Below, piece after piece: positions 8,621 through 47,592 of a stretch of DNA of 64,000 bases. The notes under the pieces are model-generated. The model worked only from the letters and a program-made list of their open reading frames with translations. It did no database searches and was not told the origin of the DNA. Numbering within the stretch: position 1 is the stretch's first letter; each line of letters begins with the position of its first letter. Made by a program: the position numbers and the translations under genes. Source of the stretch: Bilabrum cf. latius (taxonomy: Eukaryota); contig OZ237737.1 of NCBI GenBank assembly GCA_965178125.1, positions 248,001 to 312,000 on the forward strand, given 5' to 3'.

Positions 8621-10493
8621 ATGCAGAATATGCAAACGGTCTCTGGACTTGTGCTAGCCAGTCTTGCGTCCACATCGTCGGCTGTAAACACCACTATCGT
8701 TGATTTTACCGGGCCGTAGAATGTAGCAAAGTCTGCTCCGGCGGAATGTGCACCCGGGGTGCCTGCCTATCAGACCCTCATCATGAACACCGACTTCGAG
8801 CCAGAAGATGTCGGCCTTAGCATGGCTGGGATCCCAGCGTTCACGACCCAAGCAGGAGGTTGCGGGTATTCTGGCGTTGATTCTGCAGGAGGCAGCGATT
8901 GGCTGCATGGTCAGGACTACGGGATCCACCCGGCTGCCTTCGGTGAAGGCACGGCTCGTGTGCCATTCGAGCAAAAGAATGGTGGCATCCCGTAGAATCT
9001 AACGGGGGGACTTCCAGCACATGTAAAGCAGCTCAATGAGGCTATCGAAAAGACCCTCCCAATGGATTTCGATGGCATCATCTCCCTCGACTACGAGGGG
9101 TGGCAGCCAGTAGTGAGCCAACGGCCCCTCGAGACCTCCTGTCGCCCGATAGCACAATACACCGAATGGCCGCCTGAATACTCGATATCATTCGCACAAG
9201 AGTCGTACCCCGGGCAGAGGTTGTCATAAGCCTCGTTGGCCGGTCTATTGCTGGCAGCACCTGCTCGCTCCTGCACCCTCCCCACACCTATCCCAACCGC
9301 AGTGGGACAACTTTCTGTTCGGGGGCTACAAGAACTTCTCCATGCAGCTCGTCCTGGAGCAGCACCCGGAGTGGTCCTCCAACATGACCCACGTGGAGGA
9401 GGTGGCCGCCCAGCAGTTCGAGTCGGCGGGCAAGGAATTCTATCTGACCACGATCGACACCATCAAGAAGGCTCGGCCCAAAGCAAAGGTCGCCTTCTAT
9501 TCCACGCCGTTTAAGGGATGGCACAGCTATTTCGATCCCGTGAGGCTGCTTCCGGGCTAACGCTGCCATCAGCTCCGTTTCACACTGTCGCAGTCAAAGC
9601 ACTCCTTCGGCAGATTTTGCCTCATTTTCCCTTCCTTCTTTGCTTCCGAGTCGCAGGAGTACACCGCTAGTCAGGAGGCCCACAACAACGCGCTGCAGTG
9701 GCTCTGGAACGCCGTTGACGCGCTCTCCCCCGAGCTCTACCTTAACACCAGGCCACCGAGCAAGTTCACTCCCAACAACATCTCCTTTGCGCGGGCCATG
9801 ATGGGCGAGTCCCAGAGACTTGTGGACCAGACCTTCAACCAAACGGGCAAGAAGATCGGCATCGTGCCGTTCAGCTGGATGCGGGCTGGAGGGCACGCGT
9901 GGCTGCCCATTGAGGACCTGGAGGCAGACTTCCTCGTACCATTCGAGTACCCGGCGTGCTGGGGCGTCCTCGTGTGGGGCGACCCTGCCGTGGGCGACGT
10001 GGGTATGCCCGCCCTGCAGTCATACTACCAGAAGACCTTCAGGCCATGGGCGCTCAAGACTATGAAGTAGAGGTGTGATTGCCAGGCCACCAAGTGCAGC
10101 AACCACGGTCGCTGCGTGTTCAATGACACCGCGTGTGCCTGCGCTGAGGGGTGGACGGGAGACGATTGCTCCAAAAAGGCTAGCGCCCTTGGTGAGGTGA
10201 ACCCCGCCCCAGCCCTACGGGGCGCTTCTCAGCCGGCGGGTCCTGCCACGTACCAGGCGCTGGCCGATACCTACGCTCCACGGGAACCCCCAGCAGGCTC
10301 TGTGACATGCCCGGACGGCGTTGCCTACTGTCCCGCCGGAAATACCTGCGGACAGCTCACCACTGGCATGTGGGCTTGCTGCCCGCTACCAGATGCGGTG
10401 AACTGCGGGACGCACACCGGGTGCTGCCCCAAAGGCACCCTATGCGACAACGAAAACAATGTGTGCTACGACCCCGATGATGCGGCCGCTTGA
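8621..10493 (+). CDS. Secreted GH56 hyaluronidase-like glycoside hydrolase with EGF-like and granulin domains; introns ~9113-9302 and ~9540-9656
   Basis: Signal-peptide-like start; NGGIP*N, catalytic-type GIISLDYEGWQP, NALQWLWNAVDALSPELY; CSNHGRC...CACAEGWTGDDC (EGF); CPAGNTC...CCPLPDAVNC...CCPKGTLC (granulin). TAG 8717, 8993, 10068; ends TGA. Confidence 0.8.
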
Positions 10494-10709: not shown

Positions 10710-13700
10710 TTATTCTCCATTTCCACCCGCGGATGGTCCGGGTGCAGACCCCGCCCCGACGCCTTGCTGGTGCCTGCGAGCTAGCCAGACCTTCGCCTGT
10801 TTGTGGAGCAGCTTGGACGCGTGCTTCTCTCGGATCCCGTGCGCCAGCTTTGCTGTGGCTGTCTCTCTCTCCTGCTCTGCCACCGCCTCTGCAAGTGCCG
10901 CCTGCTCCTTCTCCCGCGTCTCCAGCGCCTCCTGGCGCGTCCTAGCCACGAGAGCAGCCTCTCTCAAGCGCTCGACCTCAGCCTCAAGTTCTCGAGCTCT
11001 GGACTCCGCCGCTGCTGCTCTCGCCTCTGCTCTCCCCGCCATCGTACGCAGCTGCCTGCGATCGTGCTTGGCATCTGCAGCCTGCTGCTGCAGCCTCACT
11101 GTCAGCGACGAGACCGCAGACCTTGTTTGCGGGTCATGCTGTGCTATCCCGATCCCCATGGCACCCCCTTGTTCCTCCCGCATGACCGTAGCATCATGGG
11201 GGATCGGCCTTCGTGAACCACTACTGGGTTGTCTCTGTAATGCCGCAGACCTATCACTCCTCCTCATTGGACTCACCTCGCCTATGCGAAAGGAATAGCT
11301 TTGTCCCGCTGATCCCATCGGTGATGGTGCTTTGTCCCCCCGAAGACCAGAGGTGACCGAGGCTGTGGCCGTGGGGCTTCTCACTCCGCTGCGGGGACTG
11401 CCAGAGACCATGCTGGAGCTCGGCTTCGGACTGGTTACCTGCATGGGAACAGCTTCCGGAGTTCCAAGCGCAGCACCTGCGCGCTCGCCCTTGCTCACCA
11501 ATGGAGCCGCCAGCGTCGCTGCTAAGGCGTCCCGAGCCTCTGCCTCTGCTTCCTTGTCCAGCTCGGATGCATCCATCTCAAGCAGGCGATCCACCTCTGC
11601 GGCCCGTCGAGTGATGGCCAGGATCTCGTCCGGGCTCTAGCCAATTGTGGCCACCAATGCCCCACCCTCCCCAGGCCTCCCGCCCGCAGAGAGCGGGGGC
11701 AGTCGCGAGGATCGATAAGCCACGGGTGATCGCTCGGCACTGCTTGTAGGAGGCACCCTCTACGCGTTTGAGATGGCGTGGTCTTGCTTTGCGTCTTGGT
11801 CACCAACGTACCAGTCTGCCGCTTGTTGAGGAGCTGGGGCTGCATGGCTGGCCTTGTGTTCTGACATATCGAGCTATGTGTCGCTTGCCTGCAATCCGCC
11901 ATAGCCTTGCGCAAAGTGGTGACGACCTTGATCATCCTATTGCTTGGCTCGGCTAGCACCGGCAACCATGGAGCGCAGCTGGCTGTGCATGCGCTCCATC
12001 TCGCCTCCGGGCGTGCCTCGGGCTGCCAGGGGAGCGCGGGCCGGCACCTCGAGCAGTTCAGAGATCCACACCATGTTCGCAGACGGTCCGAAGGCTGCGC
12101 TTCCATTGAAATGTGATGCCCTTGCGGCTTGGCCTTTCGGGGCTGTCCTGTGGCTTTGCATCCACACGCTGGGCGGCGATCTCGACATCCAGTGTACCAG
12201 CCACTCGTTGGTAGTGCCGCAAGACCGCGCCTCACGACTGCGGAGTGGCGAGCCACCCTCACTCTCTGCACCTTCACGACCGCTGTCTGAGTCGATCTGC
12301 GGCTCGGTTGACCCGAAAGCACGCGCCCAAGACTGTACGAGCTGCCACAGAAGTGGTGGGTCTCGCACGCTGCCCCCAGCAAACGGCATTGCGGACTCTG
12401 TGTGAACTGGTTGCCTGCATGCCTTGATCAGCTAGAGCTGTGCCCTCGCAGTTGCAGCAGCGCCGAGGTCGGGTGGCAGTGCCGACACCGAATCGATGGA
12501 TTCGCTCGAACCCGCCTCATCCACCTCGCTGCCCAGCATGGCAGTGCCGCGCCCCTGATTCTCGCGCGCCCGCCGCGCCTCTGCCTAGGCGGTCTGCGCC
12601 TCGAGCCGCATCGCGTCCTATACCGCAGACCCCACTACATCAGCGCCAGCCTGGCCCACCATACCCTGCAGCTCTTGCTTGGCCACCTACTCGGCGAAAT
12701 CGCCGGCACGCTGCGCAATCTGGCTGGCAACACGCCCGTCGGCAGGCTGTAGGAGGGCCCCAATAGCCCGGTCTAGTACCCCGCGCAGCATCACAACGCC
12801 TCGCGACCCATTGCTCGGAATATCCATGGCCTACTCAGGCGCATGGTTGTCGGCAGCAATGGCAAGTGCAGTCGCAGCCAGTAGGACGGTCTAGGGCGAA
12901 TCTAGGATCCTGCCACGGATCTTGCGAGCGGCCTCGCGCACCTTTCGCTCTCTCCCCGGGTCACGATGAGCCCTGTAGTGAGCCCTTGTCTATCTCGAGC
13001 CAGCGCGATTCCGATTGCCTCGACTGCTGCCCCTGCCTCGGGCTCCCGCGGTCTGCGTGCGTCTGGCTGGAGGCCCATCCATCCGGACACCTGCTCTGTT
13101 GCGCGACTTGCTGCGGCCACCCAATTCGGACTCATGCCCGCCTCCCACTTTCCCGGCTGATTCAGATGCAGCGCCGCATAGGACAGCCAGGTGCTGCTCA
13201 GCCGCCAGCTCCAGACCCAGCAAGGTCACTGCGAGGCCCAGCCGGGTCATGGAGCCGCTCTCGGCGAGCGATGCGGCGCCAGGCTCAGCGTTGCTACCGA
13301 GGAGATCGATCCCGATGCCAAGCTCCAACAGGCGGGCGCCTGCATGGCAGGCTGCTTGCCGCGCTACTGCCACGACGACGTCGATTGGGATCGCTCCCTC
13401 CGTTGTGCTGGCGCTGCCAGCCTCAAGACCCCACAGCAGCACTGGGACAGGAGCCTGCTTGAGGCTGTCGGAGACAAGGCCAGAAAGCTCAAAGGGCGCT
13501 CCGTGGGGCACGCGTCGCCTGACCAATGCTCCGGACACCGCGTCGCCGATGGCCGCAGAAACGGCTGCTTCGGGTGGGGCCAACGTCGGGACCGGCATCG
13601 CGCTGGTTGCAGGCTGCAAGCCGTGCGGCACGACAGCGAGCGACGGTAGGAACTGAACCGAAATACCGATCCAGATCGACTGGGGGATCAGATCATCGCC

Positions 13701-16700
13701 AGGGAAAACCCCGCCGTGTGCCAGGCGTCGTGCACTGGTAGGGTCAACAGTCGCTCGCACCGCGGTGCGATGCACCTCAAAAGGCCGGCTCACCACGTTG
13801 TCAATGGGCAGCATGGCGGCGGCCGGCAGAGCGGCCAGCTGGCGCCCCGTTTCGCAGGTGACAGACACTAGCACGGGCTGGTTGCTGCTCCATTCCACCC
13901 TTCGAAGCTGCGCCGCAAGCGAGGCCTGAGCTCCGCCGCTTCCTGCCATGCCATCCGATACGTGCGAGGCGTCCACATGAACGAGAGGAAGCGACCCAGC
14001 AAGCACGTTGACTGCGCTAAAGCTGCTGGAACCCTCGAACACGTGTGCGCTCTCCTCATCTGCAGGCCGCCCCTTGCCGCTGAGGGACCCACCTTCTTCT
14101 GTGGGCCGTTGCATCCGGCTAGCCACTCTTGGCTCCAGCCGAATTCCGCTTGCATCGTTGGCGCTGTCAGCACCGTGCGCATCTCCGGCCCTATGTACTG
14201 CATCTAGGTCCTGACGAAGGGCCGAAGTCCATCGTGCGGATGTCTTGGCGGAGTGGCGGGCACCGTACACTGCCTCAAGCTCGCCTGCCTCTTCGCCCCG
14301 GCTTCCACTCGTCCGCGCGTGGCGGCGCAGACCGCAAGACGCACTTGTCACAGAGACAGCCTGGCCGGAATCCACAGCAACGGCAGAGGTGCTCACGCTG
14401 ATGTACAGCCGACCGTACGCCCCAAGCCCTTGGCACCGGAACTCGATTGATGCCTCCTGAGCTATTTGCTCTGCGGAGCTAGCGCTGCCTGTGCCGGCTG
14501 ACCCCCCGGCGTCTGTCCTCTTTGGCAGAGCGGTGGTCTGAAGCGCATATGGCAGGAACGTGACCTTGGAAGTCAGCTGTCCAGCTCCTCGAGGGATGGA
14601 CCTTGCGCGACCTGCGGGCAGCATCGCCCATTTTTCTGCCTCCGGCAGGGTGGGGTCCCGGATGGGAAGGCGGATGGTGACACCGTCCCGGAAGAGGCAC
14701 CATGCCTTGAGTTTCTGGCGAAGCACTGCCCCCGCACTCTTCCGCTGATCCTCTGGCTTTGAAGTGCTTTTGCTGGTGCGCGATCCGTGACTTTCAACTC
14801 CATCGATCCAGTCCAGCAGCTCCACCAAAGAGGCCGTACCGGCCACCATGGCAGCATCCGTGTCTGTTTCCACCGCGCGGTCGCTAGACCCACCTTCAAG
14901 GGCAAGCATACCCCCTGTGTTGCCTCCGGATTCGTCTTGCTGCACGCCCAGTCGGATCGAACGAACGTGGATCCGGAGCTGTGGCTTGCCGCCCGCGAAT
15001 GCGTGAGGCGTAGGAAGCACGAAGCGCGGGGCTGCGCCACCAGCCCTCCGCCCGCCTGCCGCAGACAGCCCCGTACCGCCACCAAGTCGAAAGGACCGTC
15101 CTCGATTGGGCCCACCCCCGGTAGCCGAGCCAAAGCTCGGTACCCTGCTAACCCCTTCACCGTGCGAGTGCGGGGTGCCTGGCCCTGCGGTGCGGAACGA
15201 CGAGCCCCGCTGCAGGAGGTTGCGGGAACTCCCGACTCTCCGCGGATCGTTGCCATCCACAGCGCCTCCATGCATGGTAGCGGGCACGACTGCCGCTGCT
15301 CGCGGCAGCACGAGCGATCCTCTGTACCTCAGCGATGCCACCAGGTCTCGCAGCTGCGTGGCTGGCTCGCCATCGACGGGTGCCTCGACTCCCGTGTCCC
15401 CGAAAGTGCCCTGGTCTCCACTACTGCGAGCCTATGAGCTACCGTATGTGTCCCGTATCAAGCTATCGTTTGCATTAACCGTGGATCGAGGCTCTGGCTC
15501 GCCGCCCAGAGGATCTGTCTCAATCCTGGGCGGCCCCTCCCTGCTTGCATCGAGCGCGACCCGCTTGACAGGGAGCGCCTCTGTGGCAGCAAGCAGCGCC
15601 GGCTTGGGCGGGGGCAGGCCGTGCCTCTATCCCGGCCGGGGAGCGGGTGCCGAACCCGGCGCCACCGCTGCCGCTGCCTCCACCCAGAGCTAATCCCCGC
15701 CCGCAGCGACCAGCACGCCGCGCAGCCTGACCCCGGACATGGTCAGGCAACCCGCCACCACGTCAGGTCGCGCGCGTCGCAGCCTGCTTCCGCCGAGCGA
15801 TCCTTGGCTGCGCAGAGGCGCATTTGAAGCGCCGTGCGCCCCGCCCTCCTGGGCTCTGGAGCTGCCCGCCGCTATGCTAGGGGAGGACCTCGCCGCTCGC
15901 AAGGGGGGAAGGCCGTGCTTGCCCTTGCTATGCTTGCTCTCTCCATTGCGGTCGCGATCAGCTCGCTGCCGCATGCTACGCCTCCTGTGCTTGCCGTGCT
16001 CCACCCGTCCAAGCCCGCTGGCTTGGTCCGCCTCCGAATTTGGGTCCTGCATCATTGGAGGCAGCACGGCCGCAGCTAGCGCCTCCTATTCTGCGACCCG
16101 CTGCGACCTCGAGGGAACAAACGAGGCTTGTAGCGTGGCAAACCCCGCGTGCTGCAGGCCCTGATTTCCAGCAGCGCCGGGACCGGGGAACAAGAGAGGC
16201 ACGCAAAGAGCAATGTTTCCGGTGGATGCTTGCACTACCTCCGCCGGCACGACTAGCCAACCGACCGCCACCACGGACTCTGTGCTGGCTGCATCTGACT
16301 CCGCCACGTCTCGAGCAGCCTGTGCAAGCTGCGCGGCCGTTGACTGCATGTCGGTGGCCGCCTTCGTAACCCTCTCCCTTCCTCTTGCACAATGTGCGTC
16401 TAGATCCATGCCGTCGTGCAGCTGGGTTCCTCGCTTGGTGCTCGCTCGGATGGTCACCTGAAGCACGTGGCTCGGCCGCAACGACTATCTGGGGAGAGCC
16501 CGGGTGGCTGGCAGTGTGACGAGTGGCAGCGTGGGAAACACGACGGTGCCTCTGCACGGCAGAGTGGCGTGCACGGGCACGGTGCCTGCCGCCCCGGGAG
16601 CAGGCACGAGCGCATCAGCAGCAGCCTAAACAGAAGCCCTCCAGCCCGTTGTAACAGTACCATGACGAGCGAGCTAGCCGGCCCATATGCCCGTGTCACC

Positions 16701-18053
16701 CTGTCCAGTAGCACTGCTTCCTCCAACGGTCTTGCGAAAGGCGCCGCGCACATCGATCGACCTGGCTCCGCTGCCCCTGGCTCTCACCACCGCAGCAGCC
16801 TCGAGGCCCCCCCTGCTGGCAAGCACCCCGGCATCGCTCGTCCTGTCTGACAAGCCAGTGTGTGTGTCTTCCGCTCCGCGGTGCTGCTGCTCCTGCCGCT
16901 GCTGCTGCCTACTAGATACCCCCTGAGGCGGGTGGAGGGCAGGAAGCCACCGGGAGCCTCCCAGCCCAGGCCTGCCAGTGGCGGCGGGTGCTCTGGCTCC
17001 CTGCAAGAGACCCATGTGCACGCGCTTGCTCATCGCACCCGCCACGGCAGGACCGACGATTCCGCCCGCCAGCCCCCATTCACTCGTCACACGGCAGGCA
17101 GAGCTACCGAACCCGCTTGCTGTGAATTTGGTGGCGCTGCTCGAACGGTGCCCAGCCAAGTCCAACCAGCCCACTCTTCCTGTTGACCGCTGCAGTGATG
17201 AATGTTTCGGGTCAATATGGTGTCCGATGTCTCTGGCGCCGAGAAGAGGTACCACCACGTCCCCATCCCCATCCTGCCAGCTGCTGCCGCTGCCGCTGCT
17301 CGAATGGCTACCTACGCTGCTGCCGTCCATGTCGCTGGAGCTATCGCTAAACACTTCCATCTACCAAGTCTTATCAACCTGTAGAGCGGTGACAGCTTGG
17401 TTTCCCCCACTGCTATAGGCTTTGGCAAAGCGACCGGCTCCAGAGGCTGAGCGAGCAGACGCAGCAGATACGACATCTCCCTCGAAGGCAGGCAGAACTT
17501 GAGCGTCAGCACGAAGCCCAGCACCAACTGCAAGATTATGGTCTAGTCTAAGACCCATAACTCTGATTTCAGACACTACCATTGATCGCGGGAGGTGACT
17601 GTTGGAGCCCACCTTGCTCGGAGACTTGCCGCGCTCGATGGTCACGACTGCAAAGCCCTGTAGCCCGTCGGAGTGATACAAGCTTACAATAATCGTACAG
17701 GAGGCATTGCAGCGCACGCCGTCACTGCTGCGACAGAGCATGTGGTCGCAGCAGAAGCATCCATGTGCAACGGCTACGCCCTGTCGGTGAGTATCTAGCG
17801 CAATGATGGCACTAGTCTTGCTCGCAAACCCTTGAGAGGTAGAGTCTGAGAGCTGTACTTTAACGAATCTCCCACTTTCCGGCCTATATGTCTGCAGACT
17901 ATCGCGGCACGAAGAGTCCGGTCCAACACGGCGAAGCCTTACTGGCTGATGCGTGAGCCCTGCGAGCACGCGACATTCCAACATATCAGCTGGCTGTCGC
18001 TTTCCATTACTTCTGTCTGCAAAATAAATCGCCTGGATGCGCACTCGCAGCAT
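10710..18053 (-). CDS. Large hypothetical protein (~2,450 aa) with C-terminal coiled coil
   Basis: Seven listed ORFs share one frame. The gaps, read codon by codon, contain 19 TAG and no TAA/TGA; terminal TAA at 10710. The start (MLRVRIQAIYF) is inferred. Confidence 0.7.
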
Positions 18054-18168
18054 GAAGTACCTGGACTGGGCGATCCGCAGCGGTGCTGCCACTGCCAGTG
18101 GCAGCTCCGAATCTGTCTCAGCGGTTCCAATTGTTTGCTCGAAGAATGGACCGAGAAGCGCCGTTGCA

Positions 18169-18888
18169 TTACCCTATTTCCCTCGTAAACTGCTACACTA
18201 TATTCTAGCGCACGGCTGCGGCTATATCCTTGGGGGAACGACATTGCCCAGTGGCGACAATTGCAGGTGCTACCCTAGTACTTGCAACCGGGGCCCTCCC
18301 AATTCTCGCGTTGACCAGGCGCGTGCCGTTTTGTATCCGCTCAAGAACCCTTCGTATGGTGTACCCCCTTCCTGGGGCGTGGTGCGATCTGCTGCTCGGA
18401 GCAGATGGACGCAACAGCTTGAAGTTCTTCCAGTGGGCAATGGTGGCAATCATCTTGACGGCTCGCTGCAACCGCTCGCTGCTATTTCTACCGGCAGGAC
18501 TGGGTGGTGACCGGAAGCGACTGTAAATGTCCGTTGAAATGCAGGCTCCCACCTGCCTGGCCACAGCAATGCTTGCCGGCACGATGACCTGCTTGAGTAC
18601 ATAGCTTACCGCCTTCACCACAAACTTAGGCGGCTCCTCCACACCGATGGCTGTGGAGAAAACGTGTACCAGGACATTGCCAAGCAATGAGCCAGCTCGT
18701 TTCCCCACAATCTCCCCGACTGCCTCGCCCATGCCGCTGCCAGTCTGGCAAGCATCGCGCATCGTGCCCATGTTGAGGTATGCAGCAGTGGGTGCCGGCA
18801 CTGACCCATCTGCCAACGAGCACGGGCCTGGCGAGGGGGAGGGGTTGATAAGACATACCAATATAAGAACGCCTGCGATGGTCTTCAT
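18169..18888 (-). CDS. Hypothetical protein with signal-peptide-like N-terminus
   Basis: MKTIAGVLILVCLI start; reads through two TAGs to TAA 18169. No recognised family. Confidence 0.4.
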
Positions 18889-29400: not shown

Positions 29401-30094
29401 CGCTGGGGGGGATTCGCAGGCCGAGGGCGGCGCCGCGGCTGTTAGGTTCCGCTCGTCGCGCGGGCTTCGGGGGTCCGGCTAGGCGTTCAGGGGACGGTCC
29501 GTGTCGCACGAGAAGTCGCAGCAGGTGATGCAGGCCAATGCGGCAGGGGAGCCGCTCGGGGTGGATGGGGAGGGTGCAGATGCCGATGGCGCACAGCAGG
29601 AGGAGGACGATGCGATTGCTGCGCACGTGGATGCGGGCGTGCTAGGTTAGGAGGAGGACGATGCGATTGCTGCGCACGTGGATGCGGGCGTGCTAGGTTA
29701 GGAGGAGGACGATGCGATTGCTGCGCACGTGGATGCGGGTGTGCTAGGTTAGGAGGAGGACGATGCGATTGCTGCGCACGTGGATGCGGGCGTGCTTGGC
29801 ACACAGGTAGGCAGCGCCCGTGGGGGGGGAGTTGCAAGGGCGGGAGCAGGAGCAGGAGCAGGGGAGGTGGGTGCAGAGCTGGCTGGAAGAGGGGAGGAGT
29901 CCGATGGGCACGCCTCTACGAAGAATGCAGGTGGTATTGAGCAGCAGCATGCAGCGAGTTCCATGGAGGAAGCGAGCAGCGAGAGCGGCAAGGGAGGCGA
30001 GAAGAAGGAGAAGGACGGAGGCTCGCACTGGGATCTGCTCTCGAGGTTCTCGACCCCTGGGCTGTTAGCTGGTTGGGGCGGGGCGTTTGCTTAA
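26485..30094 (+). CDS. Large secreted acidic low-complexity protein; intron ~26830-26929
   Basis: Signal-peptide-like MSKFLVLLGYFSALAAIVSG; Glu-rich. The frame continues through 8 TAGs to TAA 30092-30094. Confidence 0.65.
29598..29796 (+). repeat. 51-bp coding tandem repeat, ~3.9 copies (QEEDDAIAAHVDAGVLG)
   Basis: Units start at 29598, 29649, 29700 and 29751. Confidence 0.95.
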
Positions 30095-30257
30095 TTTTTG
30101 CACGGATGCTACATCTTTCGATTCAACGTTAAACGCGATTAACCACCTGAGGGCGAACTGATGAACGCCCTGCGCAAGTAACGCGCAATTTGCGCGCCGT
30201 ATTGCAGATTTCGACCTTGTGCCGCTCCATTCCACACTCTCTACACGTGTTTCAGCA

Positions 30258-32145
30258 ATGCTCAGGCAAGCACAAAGGTTGGCATCTGCTAGATTTGCAG
30301 TCAGGTCACGCTCTCTAGCGATGCGCGCCATGAGCACCGCGGTAAGTTCTTGCTTCTGCCAGGACTCTGGTCCTTCGCATCACTGGGTTGTCTGCTGCGT
30401 GTCAGTGCATTTGTCGACAGTGTATTGACATGTTCTTTGCTTGAAGCTTGGGATAGTGTATGCATATGCGATTTTGCCGTAGATTTCCGACAGAAATTGT
30501 TCAAGAAGCGACTTGTTTGCTGACAGGTGGCGCAAGTGCAGTTGACGTTCAGCGTATCTTGCTCAACCCGGGAATTCTGAAGAGTCGAACGCGCACAAGC
30601 GGATTTCAATCGATCATGGTATGAATTTTCATTTGCATACTGCTCGCGCAGCCGATCAAGTACCCGAATTTGATCAACGGGGAGTACGTGCCGTCCAAGG
30701 CTACCGAGTGGATCCCGGTGCACGACCCCGCGACGAACGAGGTTGTAGGCGAGGTGCCCCAGAGCACCCAGGAGGAAATGGATGCCGCAACGAGCGCCGC
30801 AGTGACTGCACAAAAGGACTGGGCCGCTACTCCCGTGCAGCGGCGCCAGCGCGTGATGTTCAAGTACCAGGAGCTCATCCAGAGGCACACGGACGAGGTG
30901 GCCGCGCTCATCACAAAGGAGCAGGGCAAGACCACGGCCGATGCTAAGGGAGACGTCTTCCGCGGTCTCGAGGTCGTGGAGCACGCTTGCTCCGCCGCCA
31001 CGCTCTCGATGGGCGAGACGCTGGGCAACCTGGCTGACGGCACCGACACGTACTCGTACAGGCGACCCCTGGGCGTGACCGCCGGCATCGCCCCCTTCAA
31101 TTTCCCCGCCATGATCCCGCTGTGGATGTTCCCGCTGTCCGCGGCGCTGGGCAACGCGGTGGTGATGAAGCCCTCGGAGCGCGTCCCCGGCGCACTCATG
31201 CGGCTGAGCGAGCTGGCCCTCGAGGCTGGCCTCCCCGCCGGCGTGCTCAACATCATCCACGGGGCGCACGACACGGTCAACTTCATCTGCGACGACCCGC
31301 GCATCAAGGCGGTGCAGTTCGTGGGCGGCGATGCAGCGGGCAGGCACATCTACGAGAGGTGCGCAGCCGGTGGCAAGAAGGCCCAGTGCAACATGGCAGC
31401 CAAGAACCACGGGATCATCATGCCCGACGCTGACAAGGAGCAGGTGCTGAACGCGCTCGTGGGCTCTGCATTCGGAGCCGCCGGACAGAGGTGCATGGCG
31501 CTCAGCTTCAACATCTTCGTGGGAGAGGCCAAGGAGTGGATCCCCGAGCTGGCGAACCGCGCGGCCGCGCTCAAGGTGTCTGCCGGGCACCTGCCCGACA
31601 CGGACGTGGGTCCGATGATCAGCCCCTCTGCGCTGTCCAGGGCCAGGGACCTGATCCACAGGGGGGTGGAGGCGGGCGGGAGGCTGCTCGTGGATGGCCG
31701 GGACGTGCATGTGGCGGATTACCCTAACGGCAACTTCCTGGCGCCCACCATTCTGACTGGGCTGACCCCCTCCAATCCAGCGTACAAGGAAGAGGTGTTC
31801 GGGCCTGTGATGGGCGTGGGAACCGCGGACTCGCTGGATGAGGCCATCTCGTGGATCAACGAGAACCCCTACGGGAACGGGTGCTGCATCTTTACGCAGA
31901 ACGGCGCGGCGGCCCGCAAGTTCCAGCACGAGATCGAGGTGGGGCAGGTAGGCATCAACGTGCCCATCCCCGTGCCGCTTCCCTTCTTCTCCTTCACGGG
32001 GAACAAGAAGTCCTTCCTGGGAGACAACAACTTCTACGGCAAGGCCGGCGCCCACTTCTTGACGTAGCAGCAGACCGTGACGTCCAACTGGAAGTACACC
32101 CAGACCAGCCAGAAGGCCGCCATGGCGATGCCTACCCTCGGGTGA
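30258..32145 (+). CDS. ALDH6A1: Methylmalonate-semialdehyde dehydrogenase, mitochondrial; intron ~30342-30651
   Basis: Arg/Ala-rich presequence; [45 protein letters not shown]-terminus [11 protein letters not shown]...MPTLG through TAG 32065 to TGA. Confidence 0.95.
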
Positions 32146-32511
32146 TCGAGATGATGCCGCCACGTTGCGGCAAGCATCCTTATTTTGCACAATGGACCGC
32201 CTGAATGGCGAATATGGATAGTCTGACAGCAGCCAATTACGATTGATGGATTATATTTTTTGGTGCAACTGCAACTCCACCGGCATATCAAGGCTATCAA
32301 CCCGCATTTTTTTGGATTGTCCATGATCGTATTGCAATTATGAAAGCTGCTACCGGTTACAGCACTACTTGCGAGGCCAGTTGTCTGGTGATGACGGTCA
32401 CAGCACAACCGCAGGTTCCGCAGCTTCTAGAAGCCTGGATATGAATTTACTTGTCGCCCCTTCGCACACATTTCAACCCATAGAATCATTTCCAGATTTT
32501 TCCAAATAGTG

Positions 32512-33354
32512 ATGGCAGCAGTATCTGTGGCATCAGCAGCGTCAGCACTGTCCCGCTCGCTTCGGGTGCTAGCAATCTCCGGTTCTCTGCGGGCAGCTAG
32601 CACGAACGCTGGGCTTGCCCGGTACATCGCAGCCAACCACCCTGCGTCACTGGAGGTGAAGCTGGCAGATATCAGTAAAATCCCGTTGTTCAATTCTGAT
32701 CTCATGGATTCGGATGGGAACCCTCCGAAGGATGTGGCCGCGTTGCGACAGCAGATCCGTGAGAAGTGCTGTGCTATCACGATCGTTAACAACGATGGCC
32801 CAGGCCACTAGGGGTCATCCACGTTCTAGGCAAGCTGCTGCCGAGTGGGGACCGCCTCTTGATCCATGTTACAGCTGCGCCCAACCCGTCTATTTCGAAT
32901 GCATGCTCTGCTCTCCCCCGCAGAGGAAGCGGATGCCGTTGTGCTCGCTGTGCCCGAGTACAACTACGGGCCATCGCCCGTCATTGTGAACGCGATCGAC
33001 TGGGTGCCTCCTTCCATGTGGAAGGGCAAGCCAGTATCCATGATGTCCTCGGGGGGAACCATGGGAGGATCCAGGGCCCAGCTGCAGCTGAGGCAAAAGT
33101 TCGTGTTCTTGGAGGGGCACGTGCTGCAGAGGCCCGAGATCATGATCAACCAGTTCGGGGGCGAGAAGGTGTTCGACCCAGAGGGGAACCTGATCTCGGC
33201 CAAGTGGCAGGAGAGGACGCAGGCACAGCTGCTCGCCCTGGAGGACTTTGCCCGCACCTGGATCGCGGGCAAGGAGGCCATCGAGGCAGCCAAGGCAGCG
33301 AGGGAGTCCTCCTCTGCAGCTGCCAAGGAGGTCAAGGCGGATGGGTCCTCCTGA
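32512..33354 (+). CDS. NADPH-dependent FMN reductase (flavodoxin-like); intron ~32759-32923
   Basis: ISGSLRAASTN, PEYNYG, NAIDW, GGSRAQLQLR. Ends TGA. Confidence 0.9.
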
Positions 33355-33703: not shown

Positions 33704-34663
33704 TCACTCTCTCAGGAGGCACCCTGCGGTTTCCGCGAGGACCTTGTGCCTGCGCTCGGCTTGCTGCACAGCGGAGCGAAGGTCTGCCGCCGGGACCAGG
33801 TCTCGCATCCGCAGCGCGTACAGTAGTTGTTCCCTGGCGTTGAACGCAATGTTGTTGGCCAGGAACATGGGCAGTCCCATGTCGCGGCCCGGCCGGTGCT
33901 TTCTCTAGAACGTGCCGAGCGGCGCTCGGACGATACCAAACGTTTCTTTGCCCCAGTCTCGGCACTCCAGCGCAGACTTTTCGAGGGCGAATAAGTCCTG
34001 TTCTGAGACTTCTATCGCAAAGAAGTTCAGGAGGCACTTGCTGTCGGGCCTGCGCATGACACATAGCTAGTGTTTCGGCTACGGAACGATGAGCCCATCC
34101 GGAGCTCCGATCTCCTCCTTGAGCTCCCTTGCCAAAGCTTCCGTCACTGTCTCGCCCGGATCTACACCGCCGCCAGGGAATCCGATCCTACCGTCGTCAC
34201 GCACTATCATGAGCGCTACATTAGGACACGGATGGCCGTCGATCTTGCAGCCAGACGTACTGCAATATATCATTGCATGAACTGCATGACACCAACCGTC
34301 TTTTCGCACGTCTGCAGCCATCACTTCCTCCTAGGATGCTTTGATATATGTTTCGGTTTCCTTGACCGAAAATGGTGGGAGAGCACTTGACAGCGGTGTC
34401 CCCTTTGGATGCAGCACCTCACGAACATGGCTCCGCTCGATCGGCCGCTCACTAATGTTCTTCCCAAGCCATACTGGTGTCCTGTCCTTTATTTTATTTA
34501 CCTGTCCTGCATCGCATCGGGTGCTTGACCCGGCGAATGTAACACATGTTGCGGCAGCAAACCCACTTGCGGCAACTACACTCGTTCGCAACGAAGCGGC
34601 ACCCCATGCTTGTCTTGCCAGACGATATCTGCTCTATAAAATTCTGCGGACACGCAAACGCAT
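33704..34663 (-). CDS. NUDIX hydrolase, NUDT16 (U8 snoRNA-decapping/IDPase)-like
   Basis: HAVHAMIY, RDDGRIGFPGGGVDPGETVTEALARELKEEIG (Nudix box), DWGKETFGIVRAPL, GLPMFLANN...AREQLL. Five in-frame TAGs; ends TGA. Confidence 0.8.
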
Positions 34664-35122: not shown

Positions 35123-35201
<79 letters not shown>

Positions 35202-35364
35202 CCTGCCACCAGGTCCGCGATCAATACTCGGTGCCGATATCTCGTCCATAGCAGGGCGCGTGCCCCCGATCCCCGCGAGCCTAAGGGACAGAAGCACCGC
35301 TGCTGCCCCCCGCACAACGCAGGGTGGGCGAAACCGCTCTGGCGATTGCGCGGAAGCACCGCCC

Positions 35365-37814: not shown

Positions 37815-40800
37815 TCACTCCTGCTTCTCATCAGCCTGTTCAGACTCCCCAGCATCCTCACCCAGCTGGGACGATGCCCTGGCCCTTCGGCTCCTGGCCC
37901 GCTGCACCTCGGCAGCCGCCTCCTGCCGGGCGTCCGCCGCTGCCGCATCCTGAGCCAGCACCGCGGCGCCCACGAGTTCCGCTGCGAACTTGGCGCTCTC
38001 CGCGGACGCGGCCCGCTCCTGCCGAATGGCGGCTGCCGCCGGGCCAGTGCCCAGAGCCAGCTGGCTCTGGCTCCCGCTCCCGCTCGCGGGCGATGCAGGG
38101 CCGGTCCCTGCTGGGAACCCGTCCGCACCAGCTGCTCCTGCTGCTCCCCCATCGCCCAGCTCCCCTGTGCCGACCTCCAGTCCCGTTTCGTCGTCAAGGC
38201 GGAGTGACACGCCCCCAGTGGACATGGCACTCGCCAGTCTCGGCCCCCCGTCAGCTGAACCCGCACCCACCGTGAACCGCCCCGCGGGCCCGTCCCCTCC
38301 CCCGTTGTTCCCTGGGCTGCTGACGGACCCGCTGACCAGCCTGCCCAGCACCTCCCCCCTGGCGCTGTACGACCGGTCACAGTATGCCCCCCGGAAGATG
38401 GAGGCCTGCTTCCATGCGATACTGCGGCCGATCACCGCATCGATGGCCGCGGTGACTGTGAGGAACACGGCACCGTCCCCGTCCAGACCCCGCTGGGACA
38501 CCGCAGCCCTCACTACGGAGTCTTCGTCCGCCTCTTGTTCCCCAGCTTCTCCCTTCGACTCGGCTTCCTCCTGCTGTTCTCCAGGCGGCGCGTGGGTGAT
38601 GTCCGTGGGCGCGACAGCTGCAGCGGCCGATGCAGCTCCCCCCTCCGCCGCCCCTATCGTTCCCTGGCCCTGGCCCTGGCCCTGGCCCTGGCTCTGGGGG
38701 GGCGCACCACCCTCACTGCCTTCGCCTCTGCCGGCCCCCGCACCCATGGCCTGCTTGATGCCGAACCGCTCGAAGACGTCGCGCACCGGGCCAGGGAGAG
38801 CCGCGAAATACAGCCTCACGCCGCACTTGCGGAACACCTTGATCGTGCTGTCCAGCTCCTGGCAGGCGCTCGTGTCGATCGTGTTGATGCGGCACCCATC
38901 CACCACCACGGCACGCAGAACCTCCTGGTGCTCCTCCTCGCCCCCCTCCAGCCCGGGCCCACCAGCAGATGGTAGCGGCACCATCCCGGCCCCTTTGGCC
39001 ACCTGCGGCCCATCGATCTCGGCCATGTCCACCCCGGCCCCTTTGCCCCGCCTGCGACGCGCCTGGATGCCCTCAGACACGATGGCGGCCGCCACGTCAT
39101 CGTCGTCATCACGGGATGGGGCGTCCTACCTCGCGCCTGCCTGCCCCGCCTCCAGGTCGATACCGGGCGGGGCGCTGCCACCTGCCTGGTCCTCGCCTGT
39201 TTTGACTCTCACCCTCTTCTTGTACTTGTACTCGCCCGCACCAGACGCGCGGCTGCTGGCGCGGGACCGGTCGCCCGCTTTGTTCCCTAGGCCCTCCACC
39301 CCGACCCCGCTGGCGTCCTCGCTGCCCTTGGCCTCCGCACCATCTCCAGCGAGGTGAGCGCCACCCTGTCCACCAGACGAGGCCTCCAGCGAGGACGAAG
39401 AAGAAGACGGCTTCACCACCGCCGCCGCCTCCCCACCCCCGCAGCACACCGACCCGCCTGCAGCACCCGCATCCACCGCACCCGCGGCCTGCTCCTGCGC
39501 AGCCGCCTCTTCGAGCTCCTCCGCCCTGACCACCTCCTGCAGCCGGGCCCCGAGCAGCCGCATCAGGTGCTTGGAGACGACCTTGACGTTGCCAAAGTTC
39601 AGCTCGCCGTCTACGCGCAGCACCACCACGCCGGGCACGCGGTGCGTCTGGGGGTACCTTTGGGCATGGACAAAGACGTCAGTGCCCGGCAGCCTGCCCA
39701 GCTCGGTGATTCTCGGCTGAAAGGACCGGTAGATGAGCAGCACCAGAGAGAAGGCGACGGAGATGATGATGCCGTTATCGATGCCCGTCAGCAGCGTCAC
39801 CACGAACGTGAACATGAACTGCGCAAAGTCCATGTGGCTGACCCTCCAGAGCAGCATGGCGTCCTTCCACTTGACCAGGCTCTGAGTGGATGCCAGCACC
39901 ATCGCGGCGAGGACCGTCTTGGGCAGCTGCTCGAAGGCGGGCGCCACTGCGAGCACCACGAGCACCATCATGAGGCCCGTGATGATCACGGCCATGGGCG
40001 TCTTGGCACCAATCTCCGCGTTCACCGCCGTCCGGGTGAATGAACCAGAGGGTGGGTACGCCGAGAAGAAGCTGCCCACGGTGGAGGCTGCCCCGAGCGC
40101 CACCAGCTCGATGTTGGCCGACACCTCCTCGTTGGCCTCCTTGGCGAAACTGAGCGCAAGAGAGATGCTGCCCACGTACGCGATGAGCGCCAGGACGGCG
40201 GACTGCGGCAGGAGCTCCCAGAACTAGCCCATAGATTTTAAGGGGAACCCTGCGGCAGGGAAGCCCGCGGGGATATCGCCCACCACGGTCACTCCCTCGT
40301 CTTTGAAGCCTACTGCGACGGAGAGTCCGATGCAGAGACCCACCACGATCAGCTGGATGGGGAACCACTTGGGGGGAGGCTTGCCGGGCTCCCCGCAGGG
40401 CCACAGCCCGCAGAGGTGGATGTACTTGAAGCCAACGAGCACCACCAGAGCGCATATACCCACGATGGCGGTGAGCCCGTGGGCCTTGCCCAGGTTCGCG
40501 AACACGATGTACACGTTGTCGTAGAACTGGTCACCACCGTCCATGTCTATGCCCAGGAAGTCCCTCAGCTGCGAGGCCACGATGATGAACGCGGCGGCGC
40601 TCACAAATCCGCTCATGACCGGCCACGAGAGAAGGTTCGCCACGAACCCGAGCCGCAGGGCCCCGCACACGACGAGCACGATCCCAGAGACGAAGGAAAG
40701 CGCGATGGTCAGCTGGATGCGGTCGGCCTCCGTGGCGGGCCCGAGGCTGGTGACGATCTGGTTGATGAGGATGGAGGGTGGGGCCACGGGCCCGGGGGCT

Positions 40801-41318
40801 ACCTTCGTGGAAGAGGCCAGCAGGGCATACACGAAGAGCGGAATTGTCGACGAATACAGCCCGTAGATGGGAGGCAGGCCCGCGAGCACGGCGTATGCCA
40901 TGGACTGAGGAATGAGCAGCACGCCGACCGAGAGTCCGGCCATGACGTCGCTGAACGCCGTCTGGCCAGTGTACTTGGGAAGCCACTGCACGATCGGTAT
41001 CTGGTCCAGAGACATCTGACACCAATTTCTTATGAAAGACCAAGCCTCTGCCACGGTCACGTCGTCCGGGACACTCTCCTCAAACACTTTCGAATGCGCC
41101 ACAACCCGCCGCGTCCGCCTGCCCTGCAGCAATTTGCCCGACGGGTCATCCGGGTCGATGCTGCCGTCACTGTGATATCCATCGTTTCCTGGCCTGCTAG
41201 GTGCCGTGCTGCCATCAATGGTGCGGTGCATCGGTGCTTCTCGAGAATCGTGACGCGCCGGTACAGTAGCCGGGGACCCAGCAGCGAGCCGCCTGCTGCT
41301 GTCACCAGAGCCACTCAT
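37815..41318 (-). CDS. SLC26/SulP sulfate/anion transporter with STAS domain
   Basis: DVMAGLSVGVLLIPQSMAYAVLAGLPPIYGLY, GSFTRTAVN, LRVDGELNFGN, INTIDTS. TAG 40224 and 39126; ends TGA. Confidence 0.92.
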
Positions 41319-41653
41319 GTGAAAGGTTGTAGCAACTTATCACCGACAGCAGGTGATTCTGCAATTGATGCTTCTTCGCAGCACCACAAGATTCGATTGC
41401 AAGATCAGCTGTTGGTGTTGTTCGAACTGGAAGCCACCCCAGCAGAAAAAGGCAGTGCCTGAGCAAGGTTTACAAAACAACCGTACGAAGAAGCACGCGA
41501 AGACCTCGAAAGCGCTCTGTAGTATATTCAGCTCAGTGCACTGTACTTCGATGTAGTTTCCGTCGATGGGCGGCGCCGCGCACCGTTGCCCGGAACCGCA
41601 CAACGACTTGGGCTAACCTCTCGAACGCACACGGGCCACGCGTGGTCAACTCA

Positions 41654-43936: not shown

Positions 43937-44146
43937 GCTTGCCAGCGTCTTAACCTTTGTATGCCAGGTCAAATGCCCGGATCCAGCGGATCACAGCCCC
44001 ATCCGCGAATTTCACGATTCCGAATCTTAACACCACAGCACATTAATCGCACTATAGGGATGGTAAAGAGATATGTAGACTGTGTCTGTTTTTATTTTGT
44101 TGTATTGTGCTGTATACTGCGTATCAGTTGGATGATACAGTCCTAC

Positions 44147-45760
44147 ATGGCCACCATTTTAGCCAACCCTAAATCGTGCACTGCAAGTATATCTGTAATT
44201 GGACGGCTTGTTGGATCCACTGCGGAAAACGAGGGCTCAATTGAGTATATGTTAGATATAAACGGCTCTAGTCTATTGGTTCGACAGCATGCAATTGATT
44301 TTGTCGTGCTTCCGGCGAGCAGCACGGCTGTTGCATCCAAACCATCGGGTTTCTACTAGCAGAGATTAGCTGGCTCACGCAAGCAGAATCATCGGGATGC
44401 GTTCGATCCTCCTGATTCTAGTCTGCTTGTTTGGCCACGGAGCCAGGCATATGGTCGAACAGACGGTTGTGCGGAATTCTTTGGGTTGGAAGCCACCCAC
44501 ATGGTCGTTATGAATAAGTATCCAGTGTCACAAATGCACATGCTTGTCGTCAGGCAACCATTTCAAAGCCAAATGAAGGCGCTTGATACGGATGACTTCC
44601 GGGCTGCTATTGCAGTTGCGTCCTCCATTGCGCGAGACTCATCAACATAGGGGGCGGATTTGCAGCAGCATCATGATGGTGCATCATGGGGCTCTTGCTC
44701 TGTCGACGATCATGGTGATAGACCGCTGATTTTCTTCAACGGTGGTCCAGCCGCAAGCGCAACGTAGCCCCGAAGGCATTTGCAGGTCGTTTCCCTCGCG
44801 TGCGCCATGCAAGGACTCAGAGAAAGCGACACGGAGCAACTGCACCTCCCAGTCGAAATCGCGCTTGCTCGGCGAGAAGCGGCAGTGGAATCACAGTTTG
44901 CTGAGCCGCAGGTAGACAGCGCCGCTATAGAAAGTAGTGGTAGAGGCTATATCATTGAAAGGGATCTTCCAGATGGCATCGTCCGTCTACCGCAGTGGCA
45001 GTTTGCGCATGCTGCGAGCCGTCTGCCAGCAGCAGCCACTCGGCTGCTAGGCTCTACAAGCAGCGAGCCTACAACCGCGCAGATTGCTAGTTAGGCCAAG
45101 GCGCATGTGGTTGGTAATGAAAATGGTGATGATAGAGTTCACAAGCTCGGGTCTGCCGCGGGGGCGATAAACGAGCAGGACCTCAGAGCGGTTTCAAAGC
45201 AAGTGCTCGGACTGTACCAAAGCGTGCTTCAAGCAGCCATTCGCGATGCAGATGCGCAAGCCCTGGATAGTTGCCCCAAAATGGACTGGGTATTATCGAT
45301 GGGCCCAATACCTGAAGCTTTTGGTAGGAGGACCGGAGAGTGGGAGCAAGGCCAGAGCCGGCTGGTTTCAGTGCCGCAGCACAGCCTTATCATGACACCG
45401 GACTGGATGGTTGTCGTGCTCCGATCCAAGAAAGCCCACAGGGGAATTCCGGTGGCGGGGCCGAGCTACGCCGGCCTGATGTTGGCCCTCGGCGAAGCGG
45501 AGCTGAAAGTGCTCGGTGTGAGCGACTCGGAGCAGATGCCCGACAGAGACACTGCCAGCGGAGGAGCACGCCGGCGCGTGGATCTAGATGCGCCCAGGAG
45601 AGCCGGGTCAGAGACAGGCAGCAGCCATGACGCCATCGGCCCGGTTGGAGTACTGACTGCTTGCGGGGTAGACTCTAGCAGGGTGCCACTCCTGGAGCAC
45701 CCTGCAGAGCCGCCGGACCATTCCATGCAGCGACACGAGACCCCACCCGCCGGTCAGTGA
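44147..45760 (+). CDS. Ap4A phosphorylase / ATP adenylyltransferase (Apa1/2-like)
   Basis: DAFDPPD, VVMNKYPV..HMLVV..F.SQ, FFNGGPAASAT*PRRHLQ, LIMTPDWMVVVLRS, SYAGLML. TAG 44357, 44648, 44765, 45092; ends TGA. Start codon uncertain. Confidence 0.8.
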
Positions 45761-45972: not shown

Positions 45973-47406
45973 TTACTGTCCCTGCGCTGCAGCACCACCG
46001 GCAAGCGCTTCAGCCGCCCCGTCGATGGCCTGCTCCAAATCGCCCCACAGATCCTCTACGTCTTCCAGCCCAACTGACACTCTCAGCAAGGAAGCCGGCG
46101 TCTTGGACCACTCGGGCTCGATGGTCCTCCTGTGCTCCACCAGGCTCTCGGTGCCGCCCAGCGAGGTGGCCCGGCGGAAGACCTTCACTCGGGCTGCCGC
46201 TTCCACCGCGAAATCCTGAAAGGCGTCCAGATCCAGTGGCTCACTCCCACCGCCGGCGCCTCCCTTCGCATCGTACTCGTGCTCGTGCTCGTGCGGCTGC
46301 GGCAGGGTGAAGCTCAGCATGGCCCCGAACCCGAACCGCTCCCAGTCCGTCTGTTCCCTGGTGACCTGGTGCCCCGCGTGCGATGCCAGCCCGGGGTAGT
46401 GCACCCTGCCCACGAACGGGTGCTGCTCGAGCCTCTGCGCGAGCACGAGAGCGCTTTCTCCTGCCATCTTCATGCGGGCGGGGAGGGTGCGGAGGCCCCT
46501 CATGGCGAGCCAGGCGTCGAAGGGTGCCGCCACCCCGCCCTGAAGCTGCTGCGACAGCCTGGCTTGCTCCCACACCTGCCTCCGCAACGCATCCACTGCA
46601 CCACCAGTGCCGGTCGGATCCTCCGTCTGACCCACGGCAGACACGAGCGCTCCCCCCAGCAGGTCCGAGTGCCCCCCGATATGCTTGGTGGTGGAGTGCA
46701 CCACAAAATCGACACCGCGGGACAGCGGCCTGCACAGCACGGGGGTCATCCAAGTGGAGTCGCAGGCCACGAGGGCACCCTTGCTGTGCGCGAGAGAGCT
46801 GGCCTGTGCCAGAGGAGTGACTCGCAAGAGAGGGTTGCTCGGCGATTCGAGCCAGAGTAGCACCGGCCCGGATGATGATGACGATGGTGATGATGCGCTC
46901 GCTTCGTCAAGGGCCGCTTCGATGGCAGGGAGGCTGCTCGTGTCGGCAACTATGCACTTCTACCTCCAAGGTTTGAAAATTGTCTCGTGGAGGGTCCCCA
47001 GGCCGTGGTACATGTCTTCTGGTAGGATGACAGTGGCGTCGGGACCGACTGCCGTGAGCAACGCAGAGCATGCTGCCAGGCCGGAGGCGAATGCTATAGA
47101 GTCTTTGCCGGCCTCAGCAGTTGCTAGTGACTACTCGAACTGTTTCCTGGTCGGGTTGTCCTGTCGAGAGTACAGAAATCCCTTGCTATACTCCAGATCC
47201 GCGTCTCGTTCAAATGTTGTAGCAAAATGAATGGGCGGAGTCACGGATCCAAATTGGTCATCAGAGCTGTTGCAACCAGCATGTGCAAGCACTGTCTGAA
47301 CAGCTGGTCCTGTTTTCGCGGCGCATCTAGCTGCACAAACGTGTAGTTGCCGTCCCGTCCCGAGCAAAGGTGCAGACCGCGCAGCTCCCATCAAACGACG
47401 AATCAT
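45973..47406 (-). CDS. Cystathionine gamma-synthase/gamma-lyase family PLP enzyme with presequence-like N-terminus
   Basis: YSRQDNPTR, FASGLAA, WLESPSNP, HSTTKHIGGHSD (PLP Lys), ATSLGGTESLVEH, LLRVSVGLE. TAG 47131 and 46960; ends TAA. Confidence 0.9.
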
Positions 47407-47592
47407 GGCACCTCACAAAGTCAAAAGCTGAATGGATTTAGTTTATACGGATTAATTGGCTTTGATACCGATTAAACTGTATAGATTTAGCACAATAGGG
47501 ACAGGAAGAAGTGTTTTCAATCCGCCGCCCGGAATTAGAATAATCGGCAGTCGCTGCCTCAGCTCGCGAAACCGGTGTGGAGCACTAGAGAC

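Follow-up and report, generated by a model that had tools for sequence, protein, structure and literature searches.

Nuclear genetic codes in which UAG has been separated from UAA are few: the available part of PMC11687900 lists a rhizarian, Iotanema, Scotinosphaera, Protocruzia, some phyllopharyngeans and one other ciliate. According to the portions of PMC5304391 and PMC11687900 that concern them, UAG alone is read as Gln in the fornicate Iotanema spirale, in the ciliate Protocruzia tuzeti and in two phyllopharyngean ciliate lineages. The stretch of DNA considered here, which comprises 64,000 nucleotides of contig OZ237737.1 (positions 248,001 to 312,000 of the forward strand; "the window" in the following, always at its full length), contains a gene for methylmalonate-semialdehyde dehydrogenase (MMSDH, the eukaryotic ALDH6A1) with an in-frame TAG close to its 3′-end. 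Analysis of this codon and of the other long frames of the window points to a code of the same kind, in which UAG is a sense codon throughout the genome, most likely for Gln, while UGA, in most cases, and UAA end the genes; taken as a whole, this reading is considered probable.

The window shares with the pattern of NCBI table 15 the presence of in-frame UAG at Gln columns and termination at UAA and UGA; the mechanism expected for that pattern is a tRNA with anticodon CUA together with an altered eRF1. It differs from Iotanema and from the ciliates in its GC content, about 61%, in its GT-AG introns and in encoding a mitochondrial-type MMSDH, and these features would argue against both an AT-rich ciliate macronucleus and an anaerobic fornicate. 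A larger group of codes reads UAR as Gln (table 6) and includes many ciliates, ulvophycean green algae, hexamitids, Streblomastix and the aphelid Amoeboaphelidium protococcarum (PMC5304391 and PMC11687900, and for the last species also PMC6299283, each as far as the excerpted text goes). The likeness consists in a stop codon that has become Gln and in TAG being found in frame across the genome; however, the UAR pattern fails here because TAA terminates. UAG is likewise decoupled from UAA in codes that use other residues: the accessible part of PMC11687900 gives Leu in a rhizarian (exLh) and Ser in Scotinosphaera, and published excerpts give UAG as Glu with UAA as Lys in an oligohymenophorean ciliate, and UAR as Glu in Blastocrithidia. 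Unlike what these codes would require, Leu, Ser and Glu score 3-5 bits below Gln in two protein families of the window (GH56 and Ap4A_phos_N, see below). In the crAss-like phages (code 15) TAG is read as Gln by a phage-encoded suppressor tRNA, late in the infection of a standard-code bacterium; codon and residue are the same, whereas the window belongs to a cellular nuclear genome. The literature search retrieved no description of such an organism; novelty of the code is not claimed. Unless the organism has already been described, the window most likely represents another case of the rare UAG-only reassignment.

The TAG codon of the MMSDH gene

The gene and the codon in question are organised as follows:

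30258..30341, plus strand: exon 1 of the MMSDH gene, with the ATG and 28 codons; junction 30340/1 to 30651/2 seen in RNA-like contigs X6 rec17 and X7 rec20
30342..30651, plus strand: intron of 310 nt, GTAAGT...CAG, with GT..AG ends
30652..32145, plus strand: exon 2, 497 codons and a TGA stop; Aldedh domain
32065..32067, plus strand: the in-frame TAG under study, codon for residue 472 of the exon 2 product, at the position of Gln in F-x-T-Q; same letters in the DNA and the RNA-like contigs
32068..32142, plus strand: segment after the TAG, 25 codons, which complete strand 471-479 and encode the C-terminal tail; invariant residues kept
32143..32145, plus strand: terminator TGA; a relative stops at the same residue with TAA
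32146..32230, plus strand: 3′ untranslated region, at least to 32230; X7 rec21 covers 31631..32230 and X6 rec17 ends at 32158

Apart from this codon the enzyme is ordinary. Exon 2 matches Pfam PF00171 (Aldedh) with 438-440 bits over residues 13-476, and the PDB chains of human ALDH6A1 align with residues 7-497, through to MPTMG, at an E-value of 4e-196. The window protein is 59-65% identical to eukaryotic MMSDH (CoA-acylating), its named best matches being at 59-62% identity and including oomycetes, animals and amoebozoans; the catalytic Cys column, C281, is invariant and kept by the window. The 28 residues of exon 1, basic, hydroxylated and rich in Arg, Ser and Ala, may represent a mitochondrial presequence, judging from composition only. 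As far as sequence can tell, the gene most likely encodes a normal enzyme of complete length, with 525 residues (28 plus 497) and a Gln in the conserved F-x-T-Q.

The first-pass annotation had placed the TAG at the conserved Gln of the ALDH6A1 FxTQ motif, and the homologues agree: across 120 matches (pairwise BLASTP) the column is occupied by Gln in 106 of the 118 that cover it, the remainder being Lys in four, Asp in three, Ser and Tyr in two each and Glu in one, with two matches not covering the site. The alignment of MMSDH C-termini that had been proposed as a check was carried out on 19 homologues picked from the 120 (alignment A1) and gave Gln in 18 and Glu in one; the column is thus a Gln column, and none of the 118 covering homologues terminates at this position. 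It had also been suggested that the conserved C-terminus continues beyond the TAG; indeed, the window agrees with all four invariant A1 columns located 3′ of it (T475, T477, W480 and P494), and human ALDH6A1 remains aligned up to MPTMG. As to the claim that stopping at TAG would cost the enzyme a strand, an AlphaFold2 model of MMSDH, computed from a 30-sequence alignment (mean pLDDT 87.6, pTM 0.88, with pLDDT about 75-81 in the C-terminal part), predicts a helix at 463-469 and a beta strand at 471-479, of which residue 472 is the second. Since this residue lies inside the modelled strand, termination at TAG would be expected to delete both the strand and the tail, in keeping with the claim.

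Contigs from four public runs, belonging to four studies, were placed on the region 30100-32600: X1 and X5 are DNA-like, X6 and X7 RNA-like, this last label being a program's guess, and X1 may be the source of the window sequence. X1 spans the MMSDH stretch in one piece and X5 in several, both retaining the intron, while one contig each of X6 and X7 skips it. The X6 and X7 contigs lack exactly the predicted 310-nt intron and therefore derive from spliced RNA. X6 rec17 starts at 30259, crosses the junction and ends at 32158, and X7 rec21 extends from 31631 to 32230, with no differing letters in either; thus, the mRNA keeps the TAG unchanged and extends beyond the TGA, which excludes both an assembly error and RNA editing. 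The RNA-like contigs begin at 30246 (X7) and at 30259 (X6, where adapter letters precede), and the ATG is at 30258; the 5′ untranslated region may therefore be only about 12 nt long, contig ends being weak evidence of transcript ends.

A relative of the gene was found in L001, a metagenome contig of 5868 nt, whose MMSDH is 87% identical to that of the window, protein and DNA alike, and is followed downstream by the same neighbour, an FMN-reductase-like gene. L001 MMSDH ends at the homologous residue (MPTLG) with TAA, a finding which supports a role of TAA as a terminator in this lineage. Upstream, on the minus strand, L001 has a frame of 479 codons that holds 10 in-frame TAG; TAG as a sense codon is thus a trait common to the window organism and to the source of L001. 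Three protein fragments in the public collections searched (P0123, P0271 and P0275) begin or end at TAG. Small shares of the words of the window occur in algal and protist metagenome runs, which were not used to draw conclusions on habitat.

TAG as a sense codon across the window

The first-pass annotation was correct in substance; what lay beyond its view is that the use of TAG is supported as genome-wide, and not as a peculiarity of one gene. With TAG read as sense, 17 candidate coding frames (14,976 codons) were considered, and 16 of them contain in-frame TAG, 86 in all. The TAG-bearing features outside MMSDH that are needed in the following are:

8993..8995, plus strand: in-frame TAG where the NGG[IVL]PQ motif has its Q, in a gene resembling GH56 hyaluronidases; Q in PDB chains 2atm, 1fcq and 2pe4
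10710..18449, minus strand: giant frame of 2579 codons with 23 TAG, no TGA or TAA inside and a TAA end
33905..34081, minus strand: three in-frame TAG (33905-07, 34067-69, 34079-81) in a Nudt16-like domain
40224..40226, minus strand: SulP/SLC26 gene (ORF 37815..41336) with an in-frame TAG in its Sulfate_transp domain
44765..44767, plus strand: in-frame TAG in an Ap4A phosphorylase-like gene, corresponding in the PDB alignment to yeast Apa2 Q157, two residues before HxHxQ
46960..47133, minus strand: two in-frame TAG (46960-62, 47131-33) in a Cys_Met_Meta_PP domain; gene 45973..47412, with a TAA end

The three stop codons behave differently in the 17 stretches: TAG occurs 86 times in frame, a number similar to the 111 and 101 of the other two frames, while TGA is absent in frame versus 223 and 275 occurrences, and TAA is absent versus 27 and 36. 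The frames end with TGA in 14 cases and with TAA in three; both these terminators and the lack of in-frame TGA and TAA follow from the frames having been delimited by TGA and TAA, so that independent support comes from the frame lengths and from the C-termini that are defined by homology (MMSDH and a cystathionine gamma-synthase-like gene, CGS, in the window; MMSDH in L001).

As regards lengths, the longest frames with TAG as sense have 2579, 1634, 1457, 1173, 1086 and 1015 codons, against a maximum of 813 under the standard code; simulating the window 100 times with a first-order Markov model gives a longest TAG-sense frame of 453 codons on average and of 767 at most. For the giant frame, the probability of finding no TGA or TAA in 2579 triplets is 6e-17. 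The same test was applied to the other two codons. TGA as sense (Trp) was rejected, since its longest frame of 994 codons compares with a simulated maximum of 1027 and is what chance produces; TAA as sense (Gln) was also rejected, as it brings no gain in long frames. Furthermore, if TAA stood to TAG as CAA stands to CAG (123:508), about 21 in-frame TAA would be expected, and none is seen (P about 1e-9).

Among the C-termini defined by homology, MMSDH uses TGA and CGS uses TAA, and none uses TAG; TAA also ends the giant frame, a very acidic frame and the MMSDH of L001. Within Pfam envelopes, TAG occurs once in Sulfate_transp, twice in Cys_Met_Meta_PP, three times in the Nudt16-like domain, once in GH56 and once in Aldedh, and it is found as well within the PDB-aligned core of the Ap4A phosphorylase-like protein. 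Its density is not uniform, with one in 498 codons in MMSDH and none in 405 in OSBP versus 23 in 2580 in the poorly conserved giant frame. Taken together, these data leave little doubt that TAG is a sense codon genome-wide, and the best explanation for the window is that it comes from a eukaryotic nuclear genome, rich in GC and carrying spliceosomal introns, that has given up UAG as a stop.

The residue encoded by TAG and the alternatives

UAG would be translated wherever it is present, most likely as Gln, with UGA mostly, and also UAA, acting as terminators. By analogy with the codes already described, decoding would be performed by a tRNA with anticodon CUA, charged with Gln, that would read UAG but not UAA, and an eRF1 no longer recognising UAG efficiently would complete the change. 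The passages of PMC5304391 on this matter state that a CUA-anticodon tRNA pairs with UAG and not with UAA, and that eRF1 changes are expected in such codes; the restriction of reassignment to UAG would then be due to the anticodon CUA reading this codon only.

Two lines of evidence bear on the residue itself. Firstly, TAG falls in conserved columns at three sites and all three are Gln columns: MMSDH (106 of 118), GH56 (three of three PDB chains) and Apa2 Q157, which follows the phosphate-binding Ser and precedes HxHxQ (one of one; the numbering of yeast Apa2 comes from a preprint). The E-values of the GH56 PDB matches are weak (0.005-0.34), though the Pfam GH56 match is above cut-off, and that of the Ap4A phosphorylase PDB match is 0.0026. 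The TAG sites of SulP, CGS and Nudt16 fall in variable columns of PDB alignments and are uninformative, and the TAG of the histidyl-tRNA synthetase (HisRS) frame falls outside the PDB-aligned part.

Secondly, the same stretches were translated with TAG set to different residues and the Pfam scores compared. The GH56 domain scores 28.7 bits with Gln, 25.9 with Lys, 25.5 with Glu, 24.8 with X and 24.0 with Trp, the other 16 residues giving 23.8-25.7. For Ap4A_phos_N, a short stretch for which all 20 residues were tried, the values are 62.0 for Gln, 58.3 for Lys, 58.1 for Asn, 57.8 for Glu and 56.3 for Trp. Summed over six families (GH56, Ap4A_phos_N, Nudt16-like, Aldedh, Sulfate_transp and Cys_Met_Meta_PP), Gln reaches 1267.8 bits, Lys 1260.1, Glu 1258.8, X 1254.1 and Trp 1247.0; Gln is either at the top or at most 0.1 bit from it in all six and exceeds Glu by 9.0 bits in the sum. 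Trp had been a candidate on account of an F-x-x-x-W-N motif close to the N-terminus of GH56 enzymes, to whose Trp the TAG at 8717-8719 (FTGP-TAG-NV) might correspond; it was rejected, since the GH56 score falls to 24.0 from the 24.8 obtained with X, and the match is not extended. Gln is thus the best-supported residue and, though unproven, quite a likely one from the sequence comparisons.

Several observations weigh against this assignment. L001 carries GAG (Glu), and not CAG, at the position of the MMSDH TAG. When the residues of relatives were collected at 14 TAG sites of the window that are read through, drawn from the frames 41654-43990 (minus strand), 10710-18449 (minus strand) and 30652-32145 (plus strand), Gln and Glu were found four times each, Lys twice, and Ser, Leu, Asp and Pro once each; Gln is therefore not dominant, contrary to a simple model of synonymous change, and a single relative fragment, 85% identical, has Gln, Lys, Ser and Glu at four TAG sites. 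The call for Gln leans mainly on the three conserved columns, two of which are in divergent homologues. Scans of the 64-kb window and of L001 for tRNA genes found none, and the window contains no eRF1 gene. In addition, the C-termini defined by homology are few, and TAG could conceivably also terminate some genes.

The alternative that best survives is that TAG is indeed a sense codon genome-wide but encodes Glu, or else Lys, through a tRNA-Glu(CUA) or a tRNA-Lys(CUA); this is regarded as unlikely. Codes with UAG or UAR as Glu are known in some ciliates and in Blastocrithidia, according to excerpted accounts, and the GAG of L001 fits such a code, as do the relatives that show Glu at three more TAG sites and Asp at one (CinA/NMNAT-like 589, 686 and 511; giant frame 1944). 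At site 124 of the CinA-like region, 150 representatives have Glu in 34 cases, Ala in 24, Asp in 21 and Gln in 10; for Lys, the evidence consists of two of the 14 sites. Glu was in fact favoured while the first three relatives' sites all gave this residue, and was weakened once the 14 sites gave mixed residues. Twelve of these 14 residues are encoded by one-step neighbours of TAG (CAG, GAG, AAG, TCG and TTG), and the scatter roughly tracks the abundance of neighbour codons in the frames of the window (GAG 790, CAG 508, AAG 391, TCG 255, TTG 120). The residues of the relatives are thus judged uninformative, because near-unconstrained sites give abundance-weighted mutational neighbours under any assignment. 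What discriminates are the conserved columns, none of which is a Glu or a Lys column, and the profiles, in which Gln is ahead of Glu by 3.2 bits in GH56 and 4.2 in Ap4A_phos_N, and ahead of Lys by 7.7 bits over the six families. A further site of the CinA-like region, 303, lies in a hydrophobic column (MAFFT; Leu in 92 of 150); it was set aside as a misalignment, in a low-complexity insert that is absent from P0121.

Still less probable is that TAG has no single meaning, either because near-cognate tRNAs, such as those for Gln, Glu, Lys and Tyr, decode it after eRF1 lost recognition of UAG, or because it is sense or stop depending on context. Context-dependent codes exist in some ciliates, as reported in published excerpts, and no residue dominates in the relatives; TAG sites turn over far faster than the surrounding protein, beyond what its 82-88% identity predicts, and strongly conserved enzymes (MMSDH, OSBP) contain fewer TAG per codon than poorly conserved frames do. 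The fast turnover may mean either that TAG arises mainly at unconstrained sites or that its decoding is costly or imprecise. However, a young codon at unconstrained sites also turns over fast, and direct evidence of ambiguity is lacking; TAG occupies conserved functional Gln positions in three enzymes, where ambiguity would be costly, and every C-terminus defined by homology uses TGA or TAA.

Finally, a local event in MMSDH (pseudogene, sequencing error, TAG to CAG editing or gene-specific programmed readthrough) might be suggested by MMSDH alone, with one TAG in an otherwise intact gene, but it is hardly credible, given that the same TAG recurs without differences in contigs of the four runs, spliced RNA-like ones included, that the tail beyond it is conserved, that L001 shares the trait, that 85 more in-frame TAG lie in the 16 other frames, whose lengths exclude that all are non-coding, and that, with 16 of the 17 frames bearing TAG in frame, most genes do not still stop at this codon, as gene-specific readthrough would imply.

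With UAG as a sense codon, probably for Gln, and UGA and UAA as terminators, it may tentatively be proposed, though with considerable doubt, that the organism forms an undescribed lineage together with its relatives (known from metagenome and run assemblies, with proteins of 87% and of about 45-70% identity), GC-rich, aerobic and distinct from ciliates, in which UAG alone was reassigned. If so, the rare decoupling of UAG from UAA would have had an independent origin here, and the near-neutral turnover of TAG would offer either a natural system for studying how a newly captured codon spreads, or an example of UAG decoding that is still imprecise. A GC-rich genome with scarce TAA and easy CAG to TAG transitions also informs how stop codons are captured and how UAG becomes separated from UAA. 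On the practical side, annotation with the standard code truncates or fragments a large share of the proteins of this organism and of its relatives, and such fragments are already public.

Other genes and frames of the window

The GH56-like gene (8456-10493, plus strand) has a signal-peptide-like start, pieces of GH56 (Pfam profile positions 66-114 and 201-326) and then EGF-like and granulin modules; the catalytic D-x-E region reads LDYEGW. GH56 is chiefly an animal family, hence an unusual gene for a protist. In the Ap4A phosphorylase-like gene, the stretch 44765-44785 (plus strand) reads T-TAG-P-R-R-H-L-Q versus S-Q-D-H-K-H-L-Q in yeast Apa2; Arg takes the place of the first His of HxHxQ; the nucleophilic His is retained, and so is the Gln. 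The word-indexed homologue search with this protein gave no match at E <= 1e-5.

The giant frame has no Pfam or PDB match, and pieces of it are 69-85% identical in the relatives' fragments P0272-P0274; the first four of its TAG form a cluster (codons 60-92), possibly within a 5′ untranslated region or an intron. The frame at 41654-43990 (minus strand) resembles a fusion, with an N-terminal CinA-C/PncC-like region, whose RPKRG-x-HR motif is common to the 150 representatives, and a C-terminal nucleotidyltransferase-like region (GSFRPFHAGH), the two being split by long low-complexity inserts. Searches of Pfam and PDB gave no match for this frame, yet the representative library contains 1002 relatives of it at E <= 1e-10.

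A histidyl-tRNA synthetase (2824-5871, minus strand; human HisRS, E 1e-141) ends a frame of 1015 codons, the first ~530 of which are Ala-rich and show no family match; they may correspond to an N-terminal extension or to an unrecognised upstream exon/intron structure. Two ARM-repeat genes are found on the minus strand: one of importin-alpha type (23739-25938), with at least one intron and conserved exons free of TAG, and a divergent one (62016-63368) with 4 TAG. The Rfam search of the window gave no match.

At 29598-29796 (plus strand), in the very acidic frame of 1086 codons, there is a 51-nt tandem repeat of 3.9 copies with 98% matches; each unit junction reads GGT-TAG-GAG, CAG precedes the first copy, and the other strand, too, stays open throughout the repeat. 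This arrangement would fit a CAG to TAG origin and does not separate Gln from Glu. A dinucleotide-type coding repeat at 35150-35300, giving (PM)n or (PC)n on the plus strand and (HG)n on the minus strand, lies within long open frames that overlap each other, and either strand may be the coding one. At 48990-49260 (plus strand), the peptide WWMNLLEGRMVPLLV is present twice, once where the frame 47476-49092 ends and once close to the beginning of the frame 49173-54077, which encodes an SF1 helicase (AAA_11/AAA_12). Upstream of the helicase there would thus be either a local duplication of small size or an alternative boundary between exons.

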